The translations under genes and the position numbers were made by a program. The notes beneath the pieces are model-generated. The model searched no databases. It saw only the letters and a program-made list of their open reading frames with translations, and was not told the DNA's origin. A DNA stretch of 64,000 nt. Source: Octopus vulgaris (lineage: Eukaryota). Every line of letters starts with the position of its first letter. Position 1 is the first letter of the stretch. Below are positions 353 to 59,364 of this stretch, one piece after another. The stretch lies in contig OX597832.1 of assembly GCA_951406725.2 (NCBI GenBank), forward strand, positions 52,514,001 through 52,578,000, in the 5' to 3' direction.

Positions 353-441
353 GTTAATCCAAACATGAAAACACAACAACGCAAGGACGTGGAACAAGTA
401 TTGTGTTATTAGATGCTCAGGAAAGGGAAGAAAGAAGGAGG

Positions 442-476
442 ATTTAACGTTTCGAGTGGAGCTCTTCATCAGAAAC
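442..476 (-). ncRNA. minimal type I hammerhead ribozyme motif in a short element (about 353-545)
   Basis: GUUU-CUGAUGA-A-GAG(CUCCA)CUC-GAAAC-GUU|AAAU; palindromic AACGUU helix III; predicted cleavage between 446 and 445; element flanked by (TA)n. Confidence 0.75.
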
Positions 477-575
477 ATAGAAAAAAGAAAGATCCAAGGA
501 AGGGAAGACTGAGGAAAAAAAATGACTGATACACACACGGTCACACATTGAATGGATATATATATATATATTGAA

Positions 576-1764: not shown

Positions 1765-2977
1765 TTCTAGATTTTCCATAGAAATTATAGCAGCACTGAT
1801 TTTTGTTACATTTCGTACTTGGGACATCAGATATAAACAAACAATGAAATCGAAGTTGGAAAAATGAGTACTGGGCACATATGCCATATTTCAGGAATTT
1901 TTGCTCCTTCATAAGAACCCATCCAACCCTTTAATCATTCACGAACTCATTGCTTAGATAGCTACTAAATATAGTGGTGTAACGTTATTGTATATACTAA
2001 TTTACATATTAAACACATTCCTGGAAGCTGGTACATATATGAAGTCTGTCCAAAAAGAACTTCTTAAAACAATGCAACAACAACCATCTGACACAGCATG
2101 CTCACGACTGCAATGTTGTGTAGGGAGGATCTTTTCGTTTTGACCGGTAGATTTTTAAAATAATTTCTTTGTAACTAAACACTTTTAAACTTCATATACT
2201 GGTAGAATGTGTGTATGTTTGTGTCTATGTTTGTCCCCCCCAACATCGCTTGACAACCGATGCTGCTGTGTTTACGCCTCCCGTAACTTAGTGGTTCGGC
2301 AAAAGGGACCGATAGAATAAGTACTAGGCTTACAAAGAATAAGTCCTGGGGTCGATTTGCTCGACTAAAGGCGGTGCTCCAGCATGGCCACAGTCAAATG
2401 ACTGAAACAAGTAAAAGATATAACCTTAATACACTTCATTTATTAGCTGGAATGTTTGTCTGAGTATTGAAGTAAGTGAGAGACAGTCTTTTAAAAGCAA
2501 GCAACTAAATGAAGGTCCATGGCTCAAAATTAATCCCCATTCATTTTTTCATTCATTTCTCTTACAAAAATAATTTACATAATTTCGTTCCTCTTTTATT
2601 GGTTTCCAAAGAACTTGTTCGTTGTTCTGTTCTTTTGTTTATTTACTACTAACACATTTATTTTTCTTAAAATTATTTATTATATCCTGTTAAATTTGTT
2701 CTCAAGAAAAACCTACACAGACTGATGCAATTGTCAACCGTTAGTTAAGTTAATTTTTTGGCTCAAAAAGCAAAAGCAAGGCCATGTAGGGGGACATGGA
2801 GTTATGTACAGGGAGGGTGTTCATGCAAAGAGTTCAGGCCATTTCTGGTCAAGAGAGTCTTTGAACCGAGCAGTCGTCGGCATCTTCACTATCTTGTCCA
2901 GCAGCTTATTCCATGGATCCGCAACCCAGACAGAGAAAGCCCCTCAAAAGAAATAATACTCTGTACAACAGAAATAA

Positions 2978-3385
2978 AGGCAGCGAGCTGGCGGAAACAT
3001 TAGCACACCAGGCAAAATGCTTAGCAGTATTTCATCTGCCGTTACGTTCTGAGTTCAAATTCCGCCGAGGTCGACTCTGCCTTTCATCCTTTCGGGATCG
3101 ATAAATTAAGTACCAGTTACGCACTGGGGTCGATGTAATCGACTTAATCCCTTTGTCTGTCCTTGTTTGTCCTCTCTGCATTTAGCCCCTTGTGGGTAGT
3201 AAAGAAATAGGTATTTCATCTGCCATTACGCTCTGAATTCAAATTCTGCCGAGATCGACTTTGCCTTTCATCCTTTCAGGGTCGACAAATTAAGTACCAG
3301 TTACGCACTGGGGTCGATATACTCGTCTTAATCCCTTTGCCAGTCCTTGTTTGTCCCCTTGTGGGCAATAAAGAAATAAGAAATA
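2978..3385 (+). mobile_element. SINE family B (Deu/Nin-domain-like), dimer
   Basis: Head ggcagcgagctggcggaa, B box gagttcaaattcc, central gcctttcatcctttcggggtcgataaattaagtacc resembling the Deu/Nin conserved domain, tail aaagaaataa. Confidence 0.85.
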
Positions 3386-27789: not shown

Positions 27790-29085
27790 TAATAATCTTT
27801 TCTACTCTAGGCACAAGGCCTGAAATTTTGGGGGGAGAGGGCCAGTCGATTAGATCGACCCCAGTATGCAACCGGTACTTAATTTATCAACCCCATGAGA
27901 ATGAAAGGCAAAGTCAACTTTGGCAGAATCCAAACTCAGAGCATAAAGAGAGATGAAATACCTATTTCTTTACTACCCACAAGGGGCTAAACACAGAGAG
28001 GACAAACGGATTAAGTCAATTACATCGACCCCAGTGCGTAACTGGTACTTAATTTATCGACCCTGAAAGGATGAAAGGTGGCCTCAGCAGAATTTGAACT
28101 CAGAACTTAAAAGGACGAAATACCACCAAGTATTTCACCTGGTGTGCTAACGTTTCTTAATTCTTTATTGCCCACAAGGGGCTAAACATAGAGGGGACAA
28201 ACAAGAACAGACAAACGGATTAAGTCGATTACATCGACCCCAGTGCGTAACTGGTACTTAATTTATCGACCCCGAAAGGATGTAAGGCAAAGTTGACCTC
28301 AGTGGAATTCTAACTCAGAACGTAAAGACAGACAAAATACCGTGAGGCATTTCACCAGGTGTGCTAACAATTCTGCCAGCTCACCACCTTCCAATAAAAA
28401 GAAGAGGAGGAAGAATCTTTTCTACTATAGGCAGAAGGCCTGAAATTTTGGGAAAGTGGGGTTGTCGATTACACCGACCCCAGTACTTAACTGGTACTTA
28501 ATTTTTTCAAACCCAAAAGGGATTAAGTCAATTACATTGACCCCACTGCATAACTGGTACTTATTTAATTGACCCTTAAAGGATGAAAGGCAAGTCGACC
28601 TCAGTGGAATTTGAACTCAAAACATAGCAGCAGATGAAATATTGCCAAGCATTTCATCCGGCATGCTAACGATTCTGCCAGCCTCCTTTCTACTATAGAC
28701 GCAAAACCTAAAATTTTTTTGGGAGCAGGCTAATCAACTACATCGATTCCTAGTGATCTGTTGGTACTTGTTTTATCCCAAAAGGATGAAAGGTAAAGTC
28801 AAAGAAATTTGTTGGTGGAATTTGAACTCAGAATGTAAAGTCAGAAGAAATGCTGCCGAGCATTCTTCCCAACACGCTAATGATTCCACTGGTTTCTACT
28901 ACAAGCACAAGGCCTGAAATTCTTGGGGAAGGGGTTTGTCAATTACATTGACCCCAGTGTTCAACTGGTACTTACTTTATTGACCCTGAAAGGACCTCGA
29001 CAGAATTTGAACACAGACTAACAAGTTGGAAGAAATGTAAACATTTTTCCCAACATGCTAATGATCCTGCCAGTCTGTCACCTTA
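27790..29085 (-). mobile_element. cluster of about 7-8 co-oriented family B SINE units
   Basis: Repeated cgaccccagt..actggtacttaatttatcgacc..aaggatgaaaggcaaagtcgacc units with two different tail types. Confidence 0.85.
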
Positions 29086-35914: not shown

Positions 35915-36415
35915 TATACATTAGCGTCATATTTATTACGTTCGCTATTTTCCAGTAGATATCGGTGCTTCGTTGTACCATTTATTTACTTTTATGTATA
36001 ATTTTACCCTCACGGGCTATCCTTTACTGGAAAGCAATACTCTCGTATTGCATTACTATTTTCATTGAAACTTCTTCACTGTTCTCGTTCTGATAACGTT
36101 GTGGCGTTCAGACAAGTGTACTGGCATAGATGTGGCAACTTTTGAAATATTGTCGAGGTTTATGCAGCTGATGAGGATAAATCAAGTATACGTTTGGCAA
36201 GCGTATTTTGAAAAATCCGAAACCGGTACTGCATTATCCATTATCTAGGTTTTTCATTTTTCAGATGTTTTTTCCTAGAGGTAAGACAATTTTTTTCATG
36301 TTTGTTGCACACACGCATCTTTACTAGTACATACGCAGTGAAGCTATACATTAGCGTCGTATTTATTACGTTCGCTATTTTCCAGTGGATATCGGTGCTC
36401 CGTTGTACCATTTAT
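35915..36415 (+). mobile_element. hammerhead-containing non-autonomous retroelement (retrozyme / Penelope pLTR-like): 430-bp unit plus 71-bp terminal direct repeat
   Basis: 35915-35985 is repeated at 36345-36415 with 3 mismatches; one hammerhead per unit; ends in (TA)n. Confidence 0.75.
36162..36234 (+). ncRNA. intact type I hammerhead ribozyme
   Basis: AUGCAG-CUGAUGA-GGAU[36-nt insert forming a long hairpin]AUCC-GAAAC-CG-GUA|CUGCAU. Canonical core, 6-bp Watson-Crick helix I, palindromic ACCGGU helix III; cleavage predicted after 36228. Confidence 0.9.
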
Positions 36416-43606: not shown

Positions 43607-44160
43607 TTTATAAATTTTTATATTAAATCTTGTGTATATGAATGCACCTATCTTTGCTGTGGAGTATTCCACCACTTTGAAATATATTGAGTGAATATGA
43701 ACACTGACCTTTGAAATTTGTTCTCTCTTTCTTGGTTTTATATTCCTGATGCTCTATTAGAGTGCTAATTAGTTGTGCTGTGTAAGGGAATAATTATCCC
43801 ATTTATTTCTTCATTATATATAATGAAGATTTGGATTGCACCTAGAAAGTTACCCTCCCAGACACAAGTCCGGGCAAGGTTGTTTATGGAAGACCAGCAG
43901 TCACCCATGCATACCGGCCTCCCCTCCCCACGCCACCAGTGGTATCCAAGGGAATGGCAAAGGCCAATACAGCTCGGCACCTGTGACGTCGCAACTCATT
44001 TTTTCTACAGCTGAGTGAAGTGGAGCAATGTGAAATAAAGTGTCTTGCTCAAGAGCACAACATGCAGCCCTGTCCAGGATTCGAGCTCACAACCTCAAGA
44101 TCATAAGCTCGATGCTCTAACCACTGAGCTATGCACCTTCATATATATATATATATATAT

Positions 44161-44322
44161 ACATATGAGAGGGATGACCACTTTATGGACAACCCTTATG
44201 CTAGAAGTAGATCCGCTATTGGTCTTACCACTAAGAAATGTTCTCATGAAAAATGGTAAGACCATAGCGAATCTACTTCTAGCATAAGGGTTGTCCACAT
44301 AGTGGTCATGCCTCTCATGTGT
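44161..44322. repeat. about 70-bp inverted repeat with a 23-nt spacer, set in (TA)n
   Basis: 44161-44230 pairs with 44254-44322 with few mismatches. Confidence 0.85.
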
Positions 44323-45143
44323 ATATAATACAATTTTACTGAACCTTCAGATTTTTATATGCTAGACCACTGGTGTGAAATTGATGTTAATTAAAATCAA
44401 ATTTCTCACCCTCATTTTAAATGTAATATATATATATATATATATATATAATATAATAAGGGTGAAAATTAGATACTAATTTAATAGTATATCTATTCAA
44501 CACCAAGTGGCCTAATGCTACTACCTGGATTATTATAATATTTTATAACATATTATAATATATTTATTTTATATATATATATATATATATATACAAAATA
44601 AGAAAATGGAGAAATACACCTTAATCAATAATCAACTACCAGATAATACCCAATCACATAATTTTGGTTTAATAAATTGTGTGAATGGGTATTATCTGTA
44701 TTATTAATTCGTGGTAAAACATTTTACATTTGCCCATATAATACAATAAATTAATTAATTGCATCGCAATTCTTAACATTTATCTATTAACATTTATCTA
44801 TTAACTTGGTTGGGTGCTTTACTAGCAGTATATCGGATACATGTTATCCCATGGTGGGTTGCACTCACAGTCCCTATCTCAATTTATATATATATATAAT
44901 TTCTATTATAGACACAAGGCCTGAAGTTTTTTGAGGGAGGAGACTACTCGATTACATCAACCCCAGTTTTCAACTGGTACTTATTTTATCGACCCTGAAA
45001 GGGATGAAACGCATATATATATATATATATATATATATGCTCCTGAGTGTGACAAGTTCAAAAAGAAACTATGTCCAGCCACTCAGAATTAAGTACTCAA
45101 AGACAAGTCTGAGAGTGAATATATTATTTAATCTATAATCATT

Positions 45144-47769: not shown

Positions 47770-48005
47770 CTTCTGGAATGCAGCAAGGTGCCTTCGTCAT
47801 CCCCTTTGTAAGGCTCAACATCTTGAGGTCAGTCTTCAATACATTGTCCTATGTCTTCTTGGGTCTCCCTCTTCCACAAGTTCTGTCCCCTTCAAGTAAT
47901 TGGCACTTTTTCATGCACCTGTCCACATCGATATGCATCACATGACCAAACCAGTGCAATTTTCTCTCTTGCACACTGCATCTAATTCCTCGTATGCCTA
48001 ACTTT
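47770..48005 (-). mobile_element. RTE LINE C-terminal fragment
   Basis: Reverse strand encodes RKLHWFGHVMHI..GTCGRGRPKKT, homologous to the 30295 fragment. Confidence 0.7.
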
Positions 48006-48074
48006 TCACTCGGTACACTAGCATTTTACATTATTTACATTCGACGGATATTTGTCCTCATCTTGTTTGTTGTT

Positions 48075-48120
48075 AACACAACGTTTCAGCTGATATACCC
48101 TCCAGCCTTTATCAGGTGTC
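48075..48120 (-). ncRNA. hammerhead motif (G8A) downstream of a tRNA-like head
   Basis: GACAC-CUGAUAA-A-GGCUG(GAGGGUAUAU)CAGCU-GAAAC-GUU|GUGUU. Partial inverted copy at 48348-48418; B-box-like GAATTCGATTCC at 48244-48233. Confidence 0.7.
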
Positions 48121-48172
48121 TTGGGGAAATTTCGAACCTGGGTTCTCATTCCTAAGGTATTTTTTTATGTTG

Positions 48173-48209
<37 letters not shown>

Positions 48210-48266
48210 CATTATTATTGAGGTCACTGCCTGGAATCGAATTCGGAATCTTGAGGTTTGTAGTCG

Positions 48267-48305
<39 letters not shown>

Positions 48306-49531
48306 CCATATACCCTCCAGCCTCCATCTTACAATATAATTAGTTAATATATCAGCTGAAACGTTGTCTTAACAACAAACAAGATGAGGACAAATATCCG
48401 TCAAATGTAAATAATGTAGATAATGTACATAATTCCTCATCTCTTAAATATAGAACTTTATGAGAGCTATATTTGGTCAAGTTGGCCAAGTCTCACTTTT
48501 CCTTGTTTAATAAAATATAGTTTCAACAGGAATTTAACATAGAATTCCAATACATAAGATATGCCTAGACATTCAACCTAGCATTTAAAAGGTATTCAGT
48601 CATGCAGGTTACTAGTAGTTTTTTTACTTTTTTTACTAATTTTTCCTGGCATTTAAGGTGGCATGCCAGGGAAAATGCTTAGCAGTATTTTATCTGTCTT
48701 TATGTTCTGAGTTCAAATTCCGCCAAGGTCAACTTTGCTTTTCAACCTTTCAGGGTCGATAAAATAAGTACCAGTTGAACACTGGAGTCAATGTAACCGA
48801 CTTACTCTCTTCCCTGGAATTACTGGCCTTGTGTCAAAGTTTGAAATCAATAATTTCTACTGGCATCATATGTAGCCTTTATTTTTAGATGTTTGTACAT
48901 TTATCTAATATAATTATGCAAGGCTTTCTCCATCTTGAGCAGAAATAGTGCCTATTACGTTTGTTTCTTCTAAAATATATTGAATTTCTTCTGATGACCT
49001 GATGCTGTAATTCTCTGGAGTGTATTTTTTGACAGAGTTATTTATTTGGTATCTGTTGTACGTGTAATTGTATTTATTTGGGATGTTATGGGTGAGAGAG
49101 GCTTGTTTTATTGGGGTATTTTTACTGTACTCTGTGAGTATGTGTGTGTTGGGGAAATAAGGGGATCCTATCTGCGCGTCTATCTGTTATTAGTAAAGGG
49201 AGGCAATTCGTTCGTTGAAGGGAAACAATTCATCCCCTAATCACCAGCAAGGCTGAATTAAGGGCAAGGCAACTGCAAGTTTGTTGTTGTAAAGTTTAAT
49301 TGTTTTATAATTAAAGATGGAAACTATGCAGAAGCCTATAAGATTGCTTATACCTGCAATTCAAAGGTACGACCTTATCATGCACTGACTTGTTTTGATA
49401 ACTACATTAAAGTTACTGAAGTCTGTGGAATACTCAACCACTTACAAGCTGATTCAGTGAGTAGGTAACATAACTGATTAAACAACTGAATAGTCATCAT
49501 TGAAACTGATGGCAACCCATACGTATTTATA

Positions 49532-49962
49532 CTTATTTCTTTATTGCCCACTAGGGGCTAAACATAGAGGGGACAAACAAGGACAGATAAAGGGATTAAG
49601 TTGATTACCTCGATTAAGTTGATTACCTCAGTGCATAACTGGTACTTAATTTATTGACCATGAAAAGATGAAAGGCAAAGTCGACCTCTGCAGAATTTGA
49701 ACTCAGAACGTAAAGACAGACGAAATACCTATTTCTTTATTACCCACAAGGGGCTAAACACAGAGAGGACAAACAAGGACAGACATAGGTATTAAGTCGA
49801 TTACATCGACCCCAGTGCGTAACTGGTACTTATTTAATCGACCCTGAAAGGATGAAAGGCAAAGTTGACCTCGGCGGAATTTGAACTCAGAACATAACGG
49901 CAGACGAAATACAGTTATCCATTTCGCTCGGCGTGCTAACGTTTCTGCCAGCTCACCGCTTT
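49532..49962 (-). mobile_element. family B SINE dimer; older monomers at about 44900-45012, 48655-48850, 51818-52560 and 56985-57545
   Basis: Same unit junction as the other multimers. Confidence 0.85.
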
Positions 49963-54938: not shown

Positions 54939-55150
54939 TAAGGGTGGGTAACAGGGCAGGCGTCTGGCTACAGAAAATCTACCCCCAATTAATTCCATCT
55001 AACCCATGCAAGCATGGAAAACTGGATGTTAAAATGATGATGATGATGACGATGTTGTTGTTACAAATCTGTATTTCTGAGATGAGGAACTTATGTTATG
55101 TATACTGTTTATATTAGTCAGACTGATGTTCTCATCTTGATTGTTACTTT

Positions 55151-55192
55151 CACGACATTTTAGCTGTTGTATGCTCCTGCCATCTTCAGGTG
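55151..55192 (-). ncRNA. decayed hammerhead motif, left arm of an inverted pair
   Basis: CAC-CUGAAGA-U-GGCAG(GAGCAUACAA)CAGCU-AAAAU-GUC|GUG. Confidence 0.55.
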
Positions 55193-55350
55193 TCTTGCAT
55201 TGAACTTGGTTGTTGTATTGGAATTTTGATACAACAAAAACGTCTTGAAACTCAGACAGTGGAATGGGAATAGCGTACTGGTGTATGCCTGTGGATCATA
55301 TAAAGGGATAGGGTTGAAATTCTGATACTGTGACAGAGTTCAACACAAGA

Positions 55351-55392
55351 CACCTGAAGATGGCTGGAGTGTATAACAGCTGAAATGTAGTG
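55351..55392 (+). ncRNA. hammerhead motif downstream of a tRNA-like A/B box head, right arm of the inverted pair
   Basis: CAC-CUGAAGA-U-GGCUG(GAGUGUAUAA)CAGCU-GAAAU-GUA|GUG; A-box-like TAGCGTACTGG at 55271-55281 and B-box-like GGTTGAAATTC at 55312-55322. Confidence 0.65.
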
Positions 55393-56659
55393 AAAGCAAC
55401 AATCAAGATGAGGCCACCAGTTCAACTATATTGTTGTTGATGATGATGAGGATGATGAAAACAAAGTACTGTCACTGTTAGTGAGTTACATTGTTTCGTC
55501 CTTGAACCAAGAAACTGTGCCTTCATGTTTGACAGATCCAGATCCCCTACAAGGGTATTTAATTCATCCTTAGCAAATTAGGGGTTGTATAGATTCATTT
55601 AAAAATTTTGCATCACAAGTCTTAGAATCTTCATGTTTTTCTCTTTGTGAATCTGAAAACACAGCAATATGTAGGAGGAAAGTGTGTGTAGGTGGGTCTC
55701 TGGAATGGGAAGTCCATCATCTTGTCGGGTTAGCCCTAGGGATGAGGGTAAGTTAGGATATTGCAGTGTTCTTTATTTGGTTTCCACTCAAGTCTGTTAG
55801 AGTTGTACTGGTGTAGCAGTCATTGCTATGATCTGTAGGTTCTCTCTTTTCCGTAGGCATTGTGAAGGGTATGTATTTCATCATCATCATCATTTAACGT
55901 CCACTTTCCATGCTAGCATGGGTTGGACGGTTCGACTGGGGTCTGGGGAGCCAGGAGGCTGCACCAGGCCCAGTCTGATCTGGCAGTGTTTCCTAACGCC
56001 AACCACTCCATGAGTATAGTGGGTGCTTTTTAAGTACCACTGGCACAGGTGCCAGGGGAGGCTGGCAACGGCCATGATCGGTTGGTGCTTTTTACGTGCC
56101 ACCGGCATGGGGGCCAGTCAGGGCGGTGCTGGCAACAGCCACGTTTGGATGGTTCTTTTACGTGCCACCGGCACTGGTATCACAACTACAATTTCCATTG
56201 ATTTTTGAGCGATTTCGATTTCGATGATATTTTCAAATACCCTGCACAGGATTTACAACAAATATTAGATGGAGTAGGGCATCTAATGATTGTCTGTTTT
56301 GCGAACAAAATATAGATAAGCTTTTGTTACTGTCAAAGTAATTTTTTGTTTTTTTGTAATTTAGAGGTAAATTGCCCATAGATGTAATAAAAAATCATCA
56401 GGATTATTTAAGCAATTGGAAGTTATTTTCAATGTATAAATGTAGTTATACAACGATATTTGACAAGAGAGATACCAAAAAACAATAAAATGGTAAACTA
56501 ATAACTCCTTGATTCAAATGAAGAATGATGCCATAACTGTCAAGTTGGTGTATATCGTAATTATCAATATATCATAATTATATAGAAGCTGCAATGATTA
56601 TCATGGGTTGTGTTGTATTCTTTTGGGGTGGGGGTGGATGATGCAGTATTTGTAATAAA

Positions 56660-57439: not shown

Positions 57440-58164
57440 ATCATCCTTTCTGGGTCAGTGAAATAAGTACCAGTTGAACACTGGGGTTGATACAATCAGC
57501 TAGCCCACCCCACTCCCCAAGAAATTCATGTCTGTAGTAGAAAGTAAAAAAAAAAAATATGATAGCATTAATATTCTCTATTGTCACTTGAGGATTGAAA
57601 AATTGGGAAGGGGCATAACTCTGTAATTCCAAAACTTTACCTTATTTTCAAAAACGTATGATTTTTGTAATCAGTGACCCCCAAATTAAGGAAGGTTAAT
57701 TTCATCACGGATACAAGATGAATATTGTTGACTGGCTGAATCGACCTTTTTTTTTTCTTTATGTGGAAAGAGAAACTGTCTTTGCAAATAAAGGCAACAG
57801 TTAACTGAGCTCCCCACCCACCTCACCCCACCTTTTTGTTTAGCTTTAAGTTAGCCTTATCAAGCAGACCCATGATTGAAGGTATTCCAACCATGACCAT
57901 CCTGTCTTTCCAACATAGTGTATTCTGACATTGTGGTTTGAAGGAGATTAAGCTGTTATCTCTAGTAAGGTGATCAACTATACAGATATCTCTTTCATTG
58001 ATCCATCTTTCACTTTTGATCACTTCAGTTCATGGCTGTCTTTACAGTTAATTATTCCAGCTAATTATTAAATTTAGCATGTTTAAGTTCTTCAATCTGT
58101 CTAAAATTATACAGTGTCTTTTGGGCATCTTTTGTTTGCTCTGAGTATCCAGAATCAAGTTTCT

Positions 58165-58765
58165 TATTTCTTTATTGCCTACAAGGGGCTAAGCACAGAG
58201 GGGACAAACAAGGACAGACAAAGGGATTAAGTCAATTACAACGACCCCAGTGCGTAACTGGTACGTAATTTATCGACCCCGAAAGGATGAAAGGCAAAGT
58301 CGACTTTGGCGGAATTTGAACTCAGAACGTAACGGCAGACGAAATACTTATTTCTTTACTACCCACAAGGGGCTAAAAACAGAGGGGACAAACAAGGACA
58401 GACATAGGTATTAAGTCGATTACATCGACCCCAGTGCATAACTGGTACTTAATTTATCGACCCCGAAAGGATGAAAGGCAAAGTCGACTTCAGCGGGATT
58501 TGAACTCAGAACATAACGACAGACGAAATACCTATTTCTTTATTACCCACAAGGGGCTAAACATAGAGGGGACAAACAAGGACAGACAAACGGATTAAAT
58601 CTATAACATCGACCCCAGTGCATAACTGGTACTTAATTTATCGATCCCGAAATGATGAAAGGCAAAGTCGACCTCGGCGGAATTTGAACTCAGAACGTAA
58701 CGACAGACGAAATACCACTAAGCATTTCGTCCGGCGTGCTAACGTTTCTGCCAGCTCGCCACCTT
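58165..58765 (-). mobile_element. family B SINE trimer
   Basis: Three units of about 183 bp enclosed by one 12-bp TSD aatcaagtttct. Confidence 0.9.
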
Positions 58766-59364
58766 AATCAAGTTTCTAACTATTCTCTTCCTCCATGTCA
58801 AACAAGACCACTTCTGAGATGGCACTGGGATTTTATGCTCTACCTTGTACTAATTCTAGTATTTTAGTCTTTGTTTTGTTGATCCATAAGATCTTTGAAA
58901 ACTCTAAACTATTATTTCCTGACGTAGAATACTTTACGAAGCTTTTTAACATATTCTGTATTGGTAACTATACCTTTAACATGTAGGAGTTCCCAGCATT
59001 ATCGTCCTGAGCAGTTGATATGTGTGTGTTTGCATGCATGTTACATGTGCATGCACATATGTGGCTTCATATAATAACAACCATCCACATTGAAAGAACA
59101 ATTTTTATTTTCACACTTGAAACCAACAAGGCCATCCTCCACCCCTGACATTGTCCCTTCCATTCCCCTCAAACACTATCCTCCACTGTCAGCTCCTATA
59201 ACTCACCAAACTCTTCAATTTCTACCCTGATTATTAGAAACACACTACAGTGTGTACAATTCCCAAGTAAAACAAACCTTTTGAACTCTGCTGGCTATTG
59301 TCCTATCACATTCACTTTTAATATCTCCATGGTAAGGGAGATAACCATTCAATGTTTTCCAACA

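Follow-up and report, generated by a model that had tools for sequence, protein, structure and literature searches.

Copies of the element in the window

The window (the whole 64,000-nucleotide stretch of Octopus vulgaris DNA that was analysed) contains at 48 kb a repeat which, judged from its sequence and that of its relatives, is a decayed inverted-plus-direct solo pLTR (terminal repeat) of a protein-coding PLE, here called family A. From 5' to 3' along the minus strand it consists of an inverted arm (48457-48348), a filler, a ribozyme fragment with a match to the start of a tRNA-derived head, a (GAT)n tract and head positions +33..+75, followed after the head by an (AAT)n tract, a spacer with an ATG at 48149, a hammerhead (48120-48075) and a tail which runs to 48025. 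The tRNA 3'-half-like segment (48265-48221), the (AAT)n tract (48220-48165) and the hammerhead with its G8A change, all described in the initial annotation, were found as reported on the minus strand.

The inverted arm (48348..48457, plus strand) holds the 3' half of the hammerhead and the full tail, stops at the extreme 3' end of family A and is 97% identical to positions D72-181 of the family A reference. An inversion of 48027-48097 at 48348-48418 had been described previously and was confirmed (97% over 71 nt, E=1.8e-29); the arm is 39 nt longer than stated at that time and extends to 48457. Between the arms, a 21-nt ribozyme fragment (48328-48308) and the (GAT)n tract (48305-48266) were also present, neither of which formed part of the earlier description. 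The inversion junction is occupied by 19 nt of filler (48329..48347), read from the sequence with the strand unspecified, for which no match was found in the family A reference. The adjoining fragment (48308..48328, minus strand) is a second, direct piece of hammerhead stem II (D56-76, 20/21 match, E=7e-4), which we infer to be a template-switch remnant. Ten nucleotides at 48306..48315 (minus strand) match the first bases of the head reference, +1..+10, at 9/10 positions and, on our assignment, are likely to mark where the direct arm really begins, with microhomology linking it to the preceding fragment.

Comparison with the head reference indicated that the (GAT)n tract (48266..48305, minus strand) replaces head positions +11..+32, so that the A box of this copy has been destroyed. 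The remaining 3' part of the head (+33..+75; 48221..48265, minus strand) includes the B box and is 91% identical to the family A head. It is followed on the same strand by an (AAT)n microsatellite (48165..48220), which belongs to the family unit and varies in length, and by the ATG (48147..48149), which opens a frame through hammerhead and tail that in tandem copies continues into the RT ORF. The hammerhead (48075..48120, minus strand) is a minimal type I ribozyme with stem I GACAC/GUGUU, stem II GGCUG/CAGCU and a palindromic stem III; the core carries G8A at 48110, the predicted cut lies after 48080 and there is a G10.1-U11.1 wobble at 48088 (CpG decay). The short tail (48025..48074, minus strand) ends at D144 and has the same sequence as the coding 5' part of the ORF. 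With G8A and a broken A box this copy is probably incapable of cleavage or of a promoter role, in agreement with the initial annotation, where it was regarded as probably inactive. No TSD was found for the copy, the longest word common to both flanks being 7 nt and lying away from the junctions. Directly beyond the tail, 47800-48025 (minus strand) contains a coding-like decayed stretch, which we take to resemble the ORF 3' end of an RTE-type LINE.

The element at 55 kb is a copy of a second family, B. Its direct arm (55236..55428, plus strand, hammerhead at 55354) is 84% identical to the family B reference and corresponds to +113..+297 from the family B head start; its inverted arm (55065..55226, minus strand) corresponds to +186..+347 at 86% identity. 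A 12-nt word present in both flanks proved to be microsatellite and not a TSD. The sequence blocks reported as common to the 48 kb and 55 kb elements are a real link (83% over 71 nt, E=7e-16); the 55 kb copy, however, has no tRNA head. Family B is a more decayed sister of family A, with approximately 63% amino-acid identity at the ORF end, and carries the tRNA-like head directly after the ORF end in 10/10 ORF-end loci. The heads of the two families align at the same position, keep A and B boxes and differ by a 10-nt indel in the anticodon region. The heads are therefore orthologous, and the 55 kb copy, which begins only at +113, is headless; this points to one acquisition in a common ancestor and not to two independent fusions. 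With orthologous heads and a headless 55 kb copy, the two insertions no longer lend the independent support to a ribozyme superfamily with which they had been credited. A search with the family B N terminus returned family A, and an exact family B pattern gave 5 matches.

Coding parent and insertion structure

A 35-nt pattern for the ribozyme, in which two positions were left free, gave 4,308 exact matches in the genome and 0 in the control, and the hammerhead motif is fixed in thousands of copies. The sample of family A consisted of 97 of the first 100 listed pattern matches, all on contig C1 and thus selected for an intact 35-mer; 96 arms were kept after removal of one with identical context, with a few probable segmental duplicates still included.

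The family A unit has the order ORF, short 3' UTR, tRNA-Arg-like head with A and B boxes, (AAT)n, ATG, hammerhead and tail, and is 2,635 nt long at a pile-up depth of at least 30. The ORF of about 850 codons encodes an RT followed by a GIY-YIG-type endonuclease. Pfam matched RVT_1 in one copy (L195, E=1.2e-9), and another (L282) retained a 569-aa open frame. The GIY-YIG-like motif at the C terminus was identified by direct reading of long copies; a Pfam search with the family A endonuclease domain itself gave no match, and in a homologue with 98% query coverage (P0069) Pfam placed GIY-YIG at 505-562. A set of 2,914 protein homologues had PLE-type domain sets, some with Pfam GIY-YIG, and no relative was found in the viral contigs searched or in the PDB. 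Tail and ORF start are one and the same sequence: a frame opened by the ATG ahead of the ribozyme passes through both ribozyme and tail and leads into the N terminus, near which a TPD.G..PKRCV stretch is common to family A and a 55% identical relative of 847 aa (P0003). An apparent upstream pLTR in L195 was rejected, being a separate insertion.

The head follows the ORF end and short UTR in 9/9 family A ORF-end loci read and lies between ORF end and ribozyme in 19/19 ORF-bearing copies examined from the two families. The adjacency of head and ribozyme is not chance, as had been argued. It does not, however, mark a non-coding SINE-ribozyme superfamily with independent origins, both elements in the window being terminal repeats of sister protein-coding PLE families. 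A tRNA part belonging to a separate SINE with its own TSD is likewise excluded, as the head adjoins the ORF and TSDs enclose the whole insertion. Nor was there a non-coding master apart from its autonomous partner with only the 3' tail in common, as in a SINE, because the whole short unit belongs to the coding element.

On domain content and layout we classify the family as an EN+ PLE, with a single RT ORF, C-terminal EN, pLTR, inverted truncated copy and minimal hammerhead; the Penelope/Poseidon clade name is tentative, chosen because the domains have the same order as in Poseidon of Anolis carolinensis (PAc), which the family resembles. According to the parts of PMC11167929 and PMC8557442 available to us, PAc likewise has a single ORF with RT and then a C-terminal endonuclease, a pLTR, a hammerhead over the first codons, a tail that is the ORF 5' end as a result of internal RT initiation, an inverted 5' copy and heavy 5' truncation. 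Unlike PAc, the octopus pLTR opens with a tRNA-derived A/B-box head and has a sense strand without T4 runs; the available text of these two sources does not mention a tRNA-type promoter for PLEs.

An inverted arm was present in 49/88 insertions. In 43/49 one arm reached the tail end and the other was short (110-164 nt into the 182-nt reference), while two full tails occurred in 0/49. TSDs of 9-17 nt were found at 27/87 insertions (25/49 inverted, 2/38 solo; controls 0) and surround the entire insertion. Direct tandem copies were few, most copies being dispersed and either solo or inverted. PLE insertions classically carry an inverted tail (PMC8557442), and the pattern of family A is that described for PLEs in the same source. 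Assignment to the non-LTR retrozymes was rejected, the copies being dispersed solo or inverted pLTRs and not tandem non-coding arrays. Those elements are also hammerhead repeats derived from PLE pLTRs; they are non-coding and by definition tandem arrays, and tRNA or Pol III are unmentioned in the part of the preprint consulted (bioRxiv 10.64898/2026.07.22.740005). TRIMp3 (Helenus: two LTRs, PBS, PPT, 4-5 bp TSD, no ORF) was rejected in view of the 9-17 nt TSDs and the RT/EN ORF. Other repeats were found repeatedly within the (AAT)n tract of the element (L012, L014, L016, L017, L025, L028, L195), and this tract is an insertion target for other repeat families. Internally deleted mini-PLEs (L242, L250, L251, L255, L261, L270, L355, L479, L480) retain 235-500 nt of the ORF start and then jump to the pLTR or tail, with nearly the same breakpoints in L479 and L480. 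These are candidate non-autonomous derivatives which may have retained the RT-binding region.

Hammerhead ribozyme

The core of the 96 arms read CUGAUGA in 67, CUGAAGA in 22 and CUGACGA in 3, and 4 arms were without G8; copies elsewhere in the genome restore CUGANGA in 92/96 arms. Since only 4/96 arms lack G8, G8A is private decay of the 48 kb copy. Restoration of CAGCCGAAA also held for the most part, position 11.1 being C in 68 of the 89 arms listed and not in the other 21, where it is T. Rfam gave no score for the 48 kb hammerhead and head, and the monomer fold of this hammerhead was no better than that of shuffled sequences (z=-0.37); both results are expected because a minimal hammerhead needs a dimer. 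A search of the whole window with Rfam returned microsatellite-driven miRNA matches and one HH9 match elsewhere at E=0.9. The latter coincides with one of three further hammerhead-like cores in the window, all on the plus strand (15426, 18391 and 36153-36251, the last being the HH9 match).

The ribozyme is no different from the minimal hammerheads of metazoan PLEs described in the available part of PMC4209133: it has a short stem I, an unpaired base before stem II, G10.1-C11.1 and a palindromic stem III that needs a dimer, dimer cleavage having been predicted there for minimal type I hammerheads with this stem III. The metazoan copies are also mainly solo, with opposite-strand pairs 100-700 bp apart, and that part of the source makes no mention of a tRNA head.

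In 13/96 arms 3 or 5 nt were missing at the predicted cut, compared with 3/96 for a nearby AAC repeat, and in a wider set cut-site deletions occurred in 37/273 arms. In 9/10 inverted pairs with such a deletion it affected one arm only, so that the deletion is not a subfamily mark. The likely cause is RT jumping cleaved RNA by microhomology; slippage in the local GT-rich word could also have produced them. The deletions are a hint that cleavage may take place in vivo. For PAc no cleaved reads were found (PMC11167929), and cut-site deletions offer a genomic handle on whether PLE hammerheads cleave in vivo.

The tRNA-derived head as a candidate promoter

When the head was compared with 30 host tRNA loci the best 3 were tRNA-Arg (z ~7). 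The Arg isotype is not certain, because Ala, Thr and Cys followed closely at z 5-6.5. The cloverleaf has been lost (acceptor 2/7, D 3/4, anticodon 3/5 and T 2/5 pairs). ARAGORN found 0 tRNAs in the whole window and called the family A head only at a relaxed threshold, the default missing it, and Rfam gave no tRNA match on 7 head-bearing loci. A full A box, broken in the 48 kb copy, is present in family copies. Boxes kept while stems are lost would fit a promoter better than an RNase P substrate; RNase P cleavage as the cause of the 5' ends was judged unlikely, since the boxes are conserved between the families and the stems are not. No PLE with a tRNA-derived pLTR was found in the open-access literature searched. 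Within that literature the proposed tRNA-type promoter module in a PLE pLTR is unreported, and the element class (EN+ PLE) is known.

Of the 96 arms, 31 had their 5' end in the microsatellite or the spacer and 18 had it within the head; 30 began at -7..+9, 7 at -8..-70, 3 at -71..-500 and 7 beyond. Among arms reaching +9, 30/47 end within the 17-nt window -7..+9, whereas truncation at the rate seen within the head would place 7.9% there (p=6e-22); the modal start is head +1. Half of the pile-up arms (15/30) are head-to-head; after exclusion of head-to-head junctions 15/26 arms still end at -7..+9 (p=1e-10). A short inverted repeat is centred at -1 of the head and may add fold-back junctions to the pile-up. 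Seven ORF-bearing arms had an intact head junction; 2 of these start at the head start (L244 at +4, reaching 911 nt into the ORF, and L252 at -1, reaching 344 nt), 1 inside the head, and 4 continue upstream. For family B, 4 of 33 arms start near the head start, 3 in the ORF and the remainder downstream, from loci that are few and score-selected. Another, headless hammerhead repeat in this genome likewise has a sharp 5' end in score-selected loci, and the pile-up therefore marks a start or stop point and not which polymerase was used. This repeat is represented in the window at 365-545 (minus strand) and is abundant (4,128 first-look candidates), about 210 nt long, with an intact core and without a tRNA head; its ribozyme strand is T-rich with a T7 run, its 5' boundary is sharp and its insertions lie beside (TA)n. 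No ORF was found in 30 loci of this repeat, which is possibly the pLTR of another PLE clade.

The 2,635-nt unit contains 0 T4 runs in the sense strand and 30 in the antisense strand. Synonymous shuffles gave a mean of 2.96 T4 runs with P(0)=0.025, or 0.003 with Phe codons redrawn; P(0) was 0.005 for base shuffles, 0.063 for a Markov model of order 1 and 0.22 for order 2. Under composition-aware nulls the absence of T4 is thus a modest effect, and G4 runs are also absent from the unit. A 620-nt stretch of family B has 0 T4 runs. Controls were 79 distant PLE loci from metagenome contigs at 30-48% identity, several of them from one assembly and not independent. Their median was 4.4 T4 per kb and 4/79 had none in the matched part of the ORF, the comparison setting a majority consensus for family A against individual control loci; in 30 individual copies of family A there were 0.46 T4 per kb. 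In 27 controls of similar T content 83 T4 runs were counted versus 67 expected, and of 24 controls with a downstream hammerhead 2 were T4-free in the pLTR and 0 in both ORF and pLTR. In the four controls whose ORF match is T4-free, T4 runs lie close by, and neither Rfam nor visual inspection showed a tRNA-like segment. An A/B-box pattern was found in none of the 79 controls, and ARAGORN, which misses the family A head too, reported 0 tRNAs in 60 of them. A distant PLE-like ORF stretch (L433, 2501-4153) has 0 sense T4 in 1,653 nt versus 7.3 expected, within T4-rich flanks. Taken with the controls, the absence of T4 supports read-through of the coding unit by Pol III without proving it.

RNA polymerase III normally makes short non-coding RNAs only. 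We consider that the tRNA-derived head at the pLTR start probably acts as an internal Pol III-type promoter. More tentatively, and with less than even odds, family A may be an autonomous PLE whose 2.6-kb coding RNA is made by Pol III from a captured tRNA-Arg promoter, with an ORF purged of T4, cap-free translation and thousands of SINE-like promoter-repeat copies shed. Transcription of a tandem copy would start from head +1 and, with no T4 terminator in the sense strand, would run on. The PLE protein would bind the 5' ORF region and initiate reverse transcription internally at the tail, as was shown in vitro for anole PAc (PMC11167929, available part), and because RT would begin there the commonest product would be no more than the 270 nt from head to tail, a solo pLTR that resembles a SINE. 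The inverted arm would come from a second round of priming; the hammerhead would cleave in dimeric form, and jumps across the cut would leave the 3-5 nt deletions.

The labour could instead be split, the head being a Pol III promoter for a short non-coding RNA only and the protein coming from Pol II read-through of tandems; the absence of T4 would then be a by-product of an A-rich coding strand and the SINE would sit inside its own master. We regard this combination as possible and rather doubtful. The four ORF-bearing arms that continue upstream through the head are in its favour, as are the Markov nulls for zero T4 (P=0.06-0.22), and Pol III RNAs are uncapped, which also counts for it. It further agrees with the argument that autonomous partners must use Pol II, made in the available text of PMC10886601. 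However, L244 and L252 start at the head and extend into the ORF, a T4-free unit leaves Pol III without a stop site, and low-T control PLEs have more T4 runs than expected and not fewer. We think it unlikely that the head is the remnant of a passenger SINE which the pLTR captured on one occasion, with a pile-up due to a Pol II start, an RT stop, hairpin fold-back at -1 or RNase P. Such an origin would suit the inverted repeat around -1, the head-to-head half of the pile-up and the sharp 5' end of the headless repeat, and Penelope of D. virilis has an internal promoter which, unlike that proposed for the octopus family, is TATA-less and LINE-like (PMC2377424, available part). The pile-up nevertheless survives removal of head-to-head arms with its mode at +1, conservation of boxes and not stems speaks against RNase P, and the absence of T4 is left unexplained.

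Very improbable, and largely refuted, is the reading of the initial annotation, an independent non-coding tRNA-SINE or retrozyme superfamily of more than one origin with a borrowed PLE ribozyme tail. Its appeal lies in the 79/96 arms that start at or downstream of -7 and are short and SINE-like, and in the existence of schistosome repeats of this kind. Against it are the position of the head, which separates the ORF end from the ribozyme in all ORF-bearing copies examined, the orthology of the heads of the two families and the lack of a body of their own in the short copies. The schistosome Sm-alpha and Sj-alpha repeats are short, dispersed and SINE-like, with a hammerhead downstream of a Pol III-type promoter, and are described as non-coding in PMC6765202, whereas in the octopus such a module forms the terminal repeat of an element that codes for protein.

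Among retroelements, Pol III promoters are familiar from parasites that do not code for protein, namely SINEs and TRIMp3 (PMC10886601). In TRIMp3 (Cassandra, Helenus, Ajax) a small-RNA-derived Pol III promoter lies in the terminal repeat and is read from the upstream repeat, as proposed here. TRIMp3 elements, however, are LTR elements that have a PBS and a PPT and are not autonomous (same source), whereas the octopus element is a PLE coding for its own RT/EN. R2 is a precedent for a coding retroelement with an uncapped, non-Pol II RNA and a 5' ribozyme; it differs in Pol I co-transcription, an HDV-like ribozyme and, in the part of PMC6765202 available, no internal promoter of this kind. If Pol III does transcribe the family A unit, this coding PLE, with its tRNA-type promoter and an ORF free of terminators, would offer a natural test of whether Pol III can make mRNA and of translation without a cap, and would contrast with the published view that autonomous partners need Pol II (PMC10886601, as far as available). 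The family would also show a route for SINE-like families to arise inside their own master element, and its thousands of copies are liable to mis-annotation as SINE or tRNA pseudogenes.

Two other repeats were noted in the window. A 184-nt tandem repeat family occurs at 58060-58768, 49515-49962, 27836-28390 and 2974-3359, in both orientations and with 85-90% identity. At 44156-44327 there is a near-perfect long inverted repeat (MITE-like hairpin) with an Rfam MIR2670 score below the gathering threshold.
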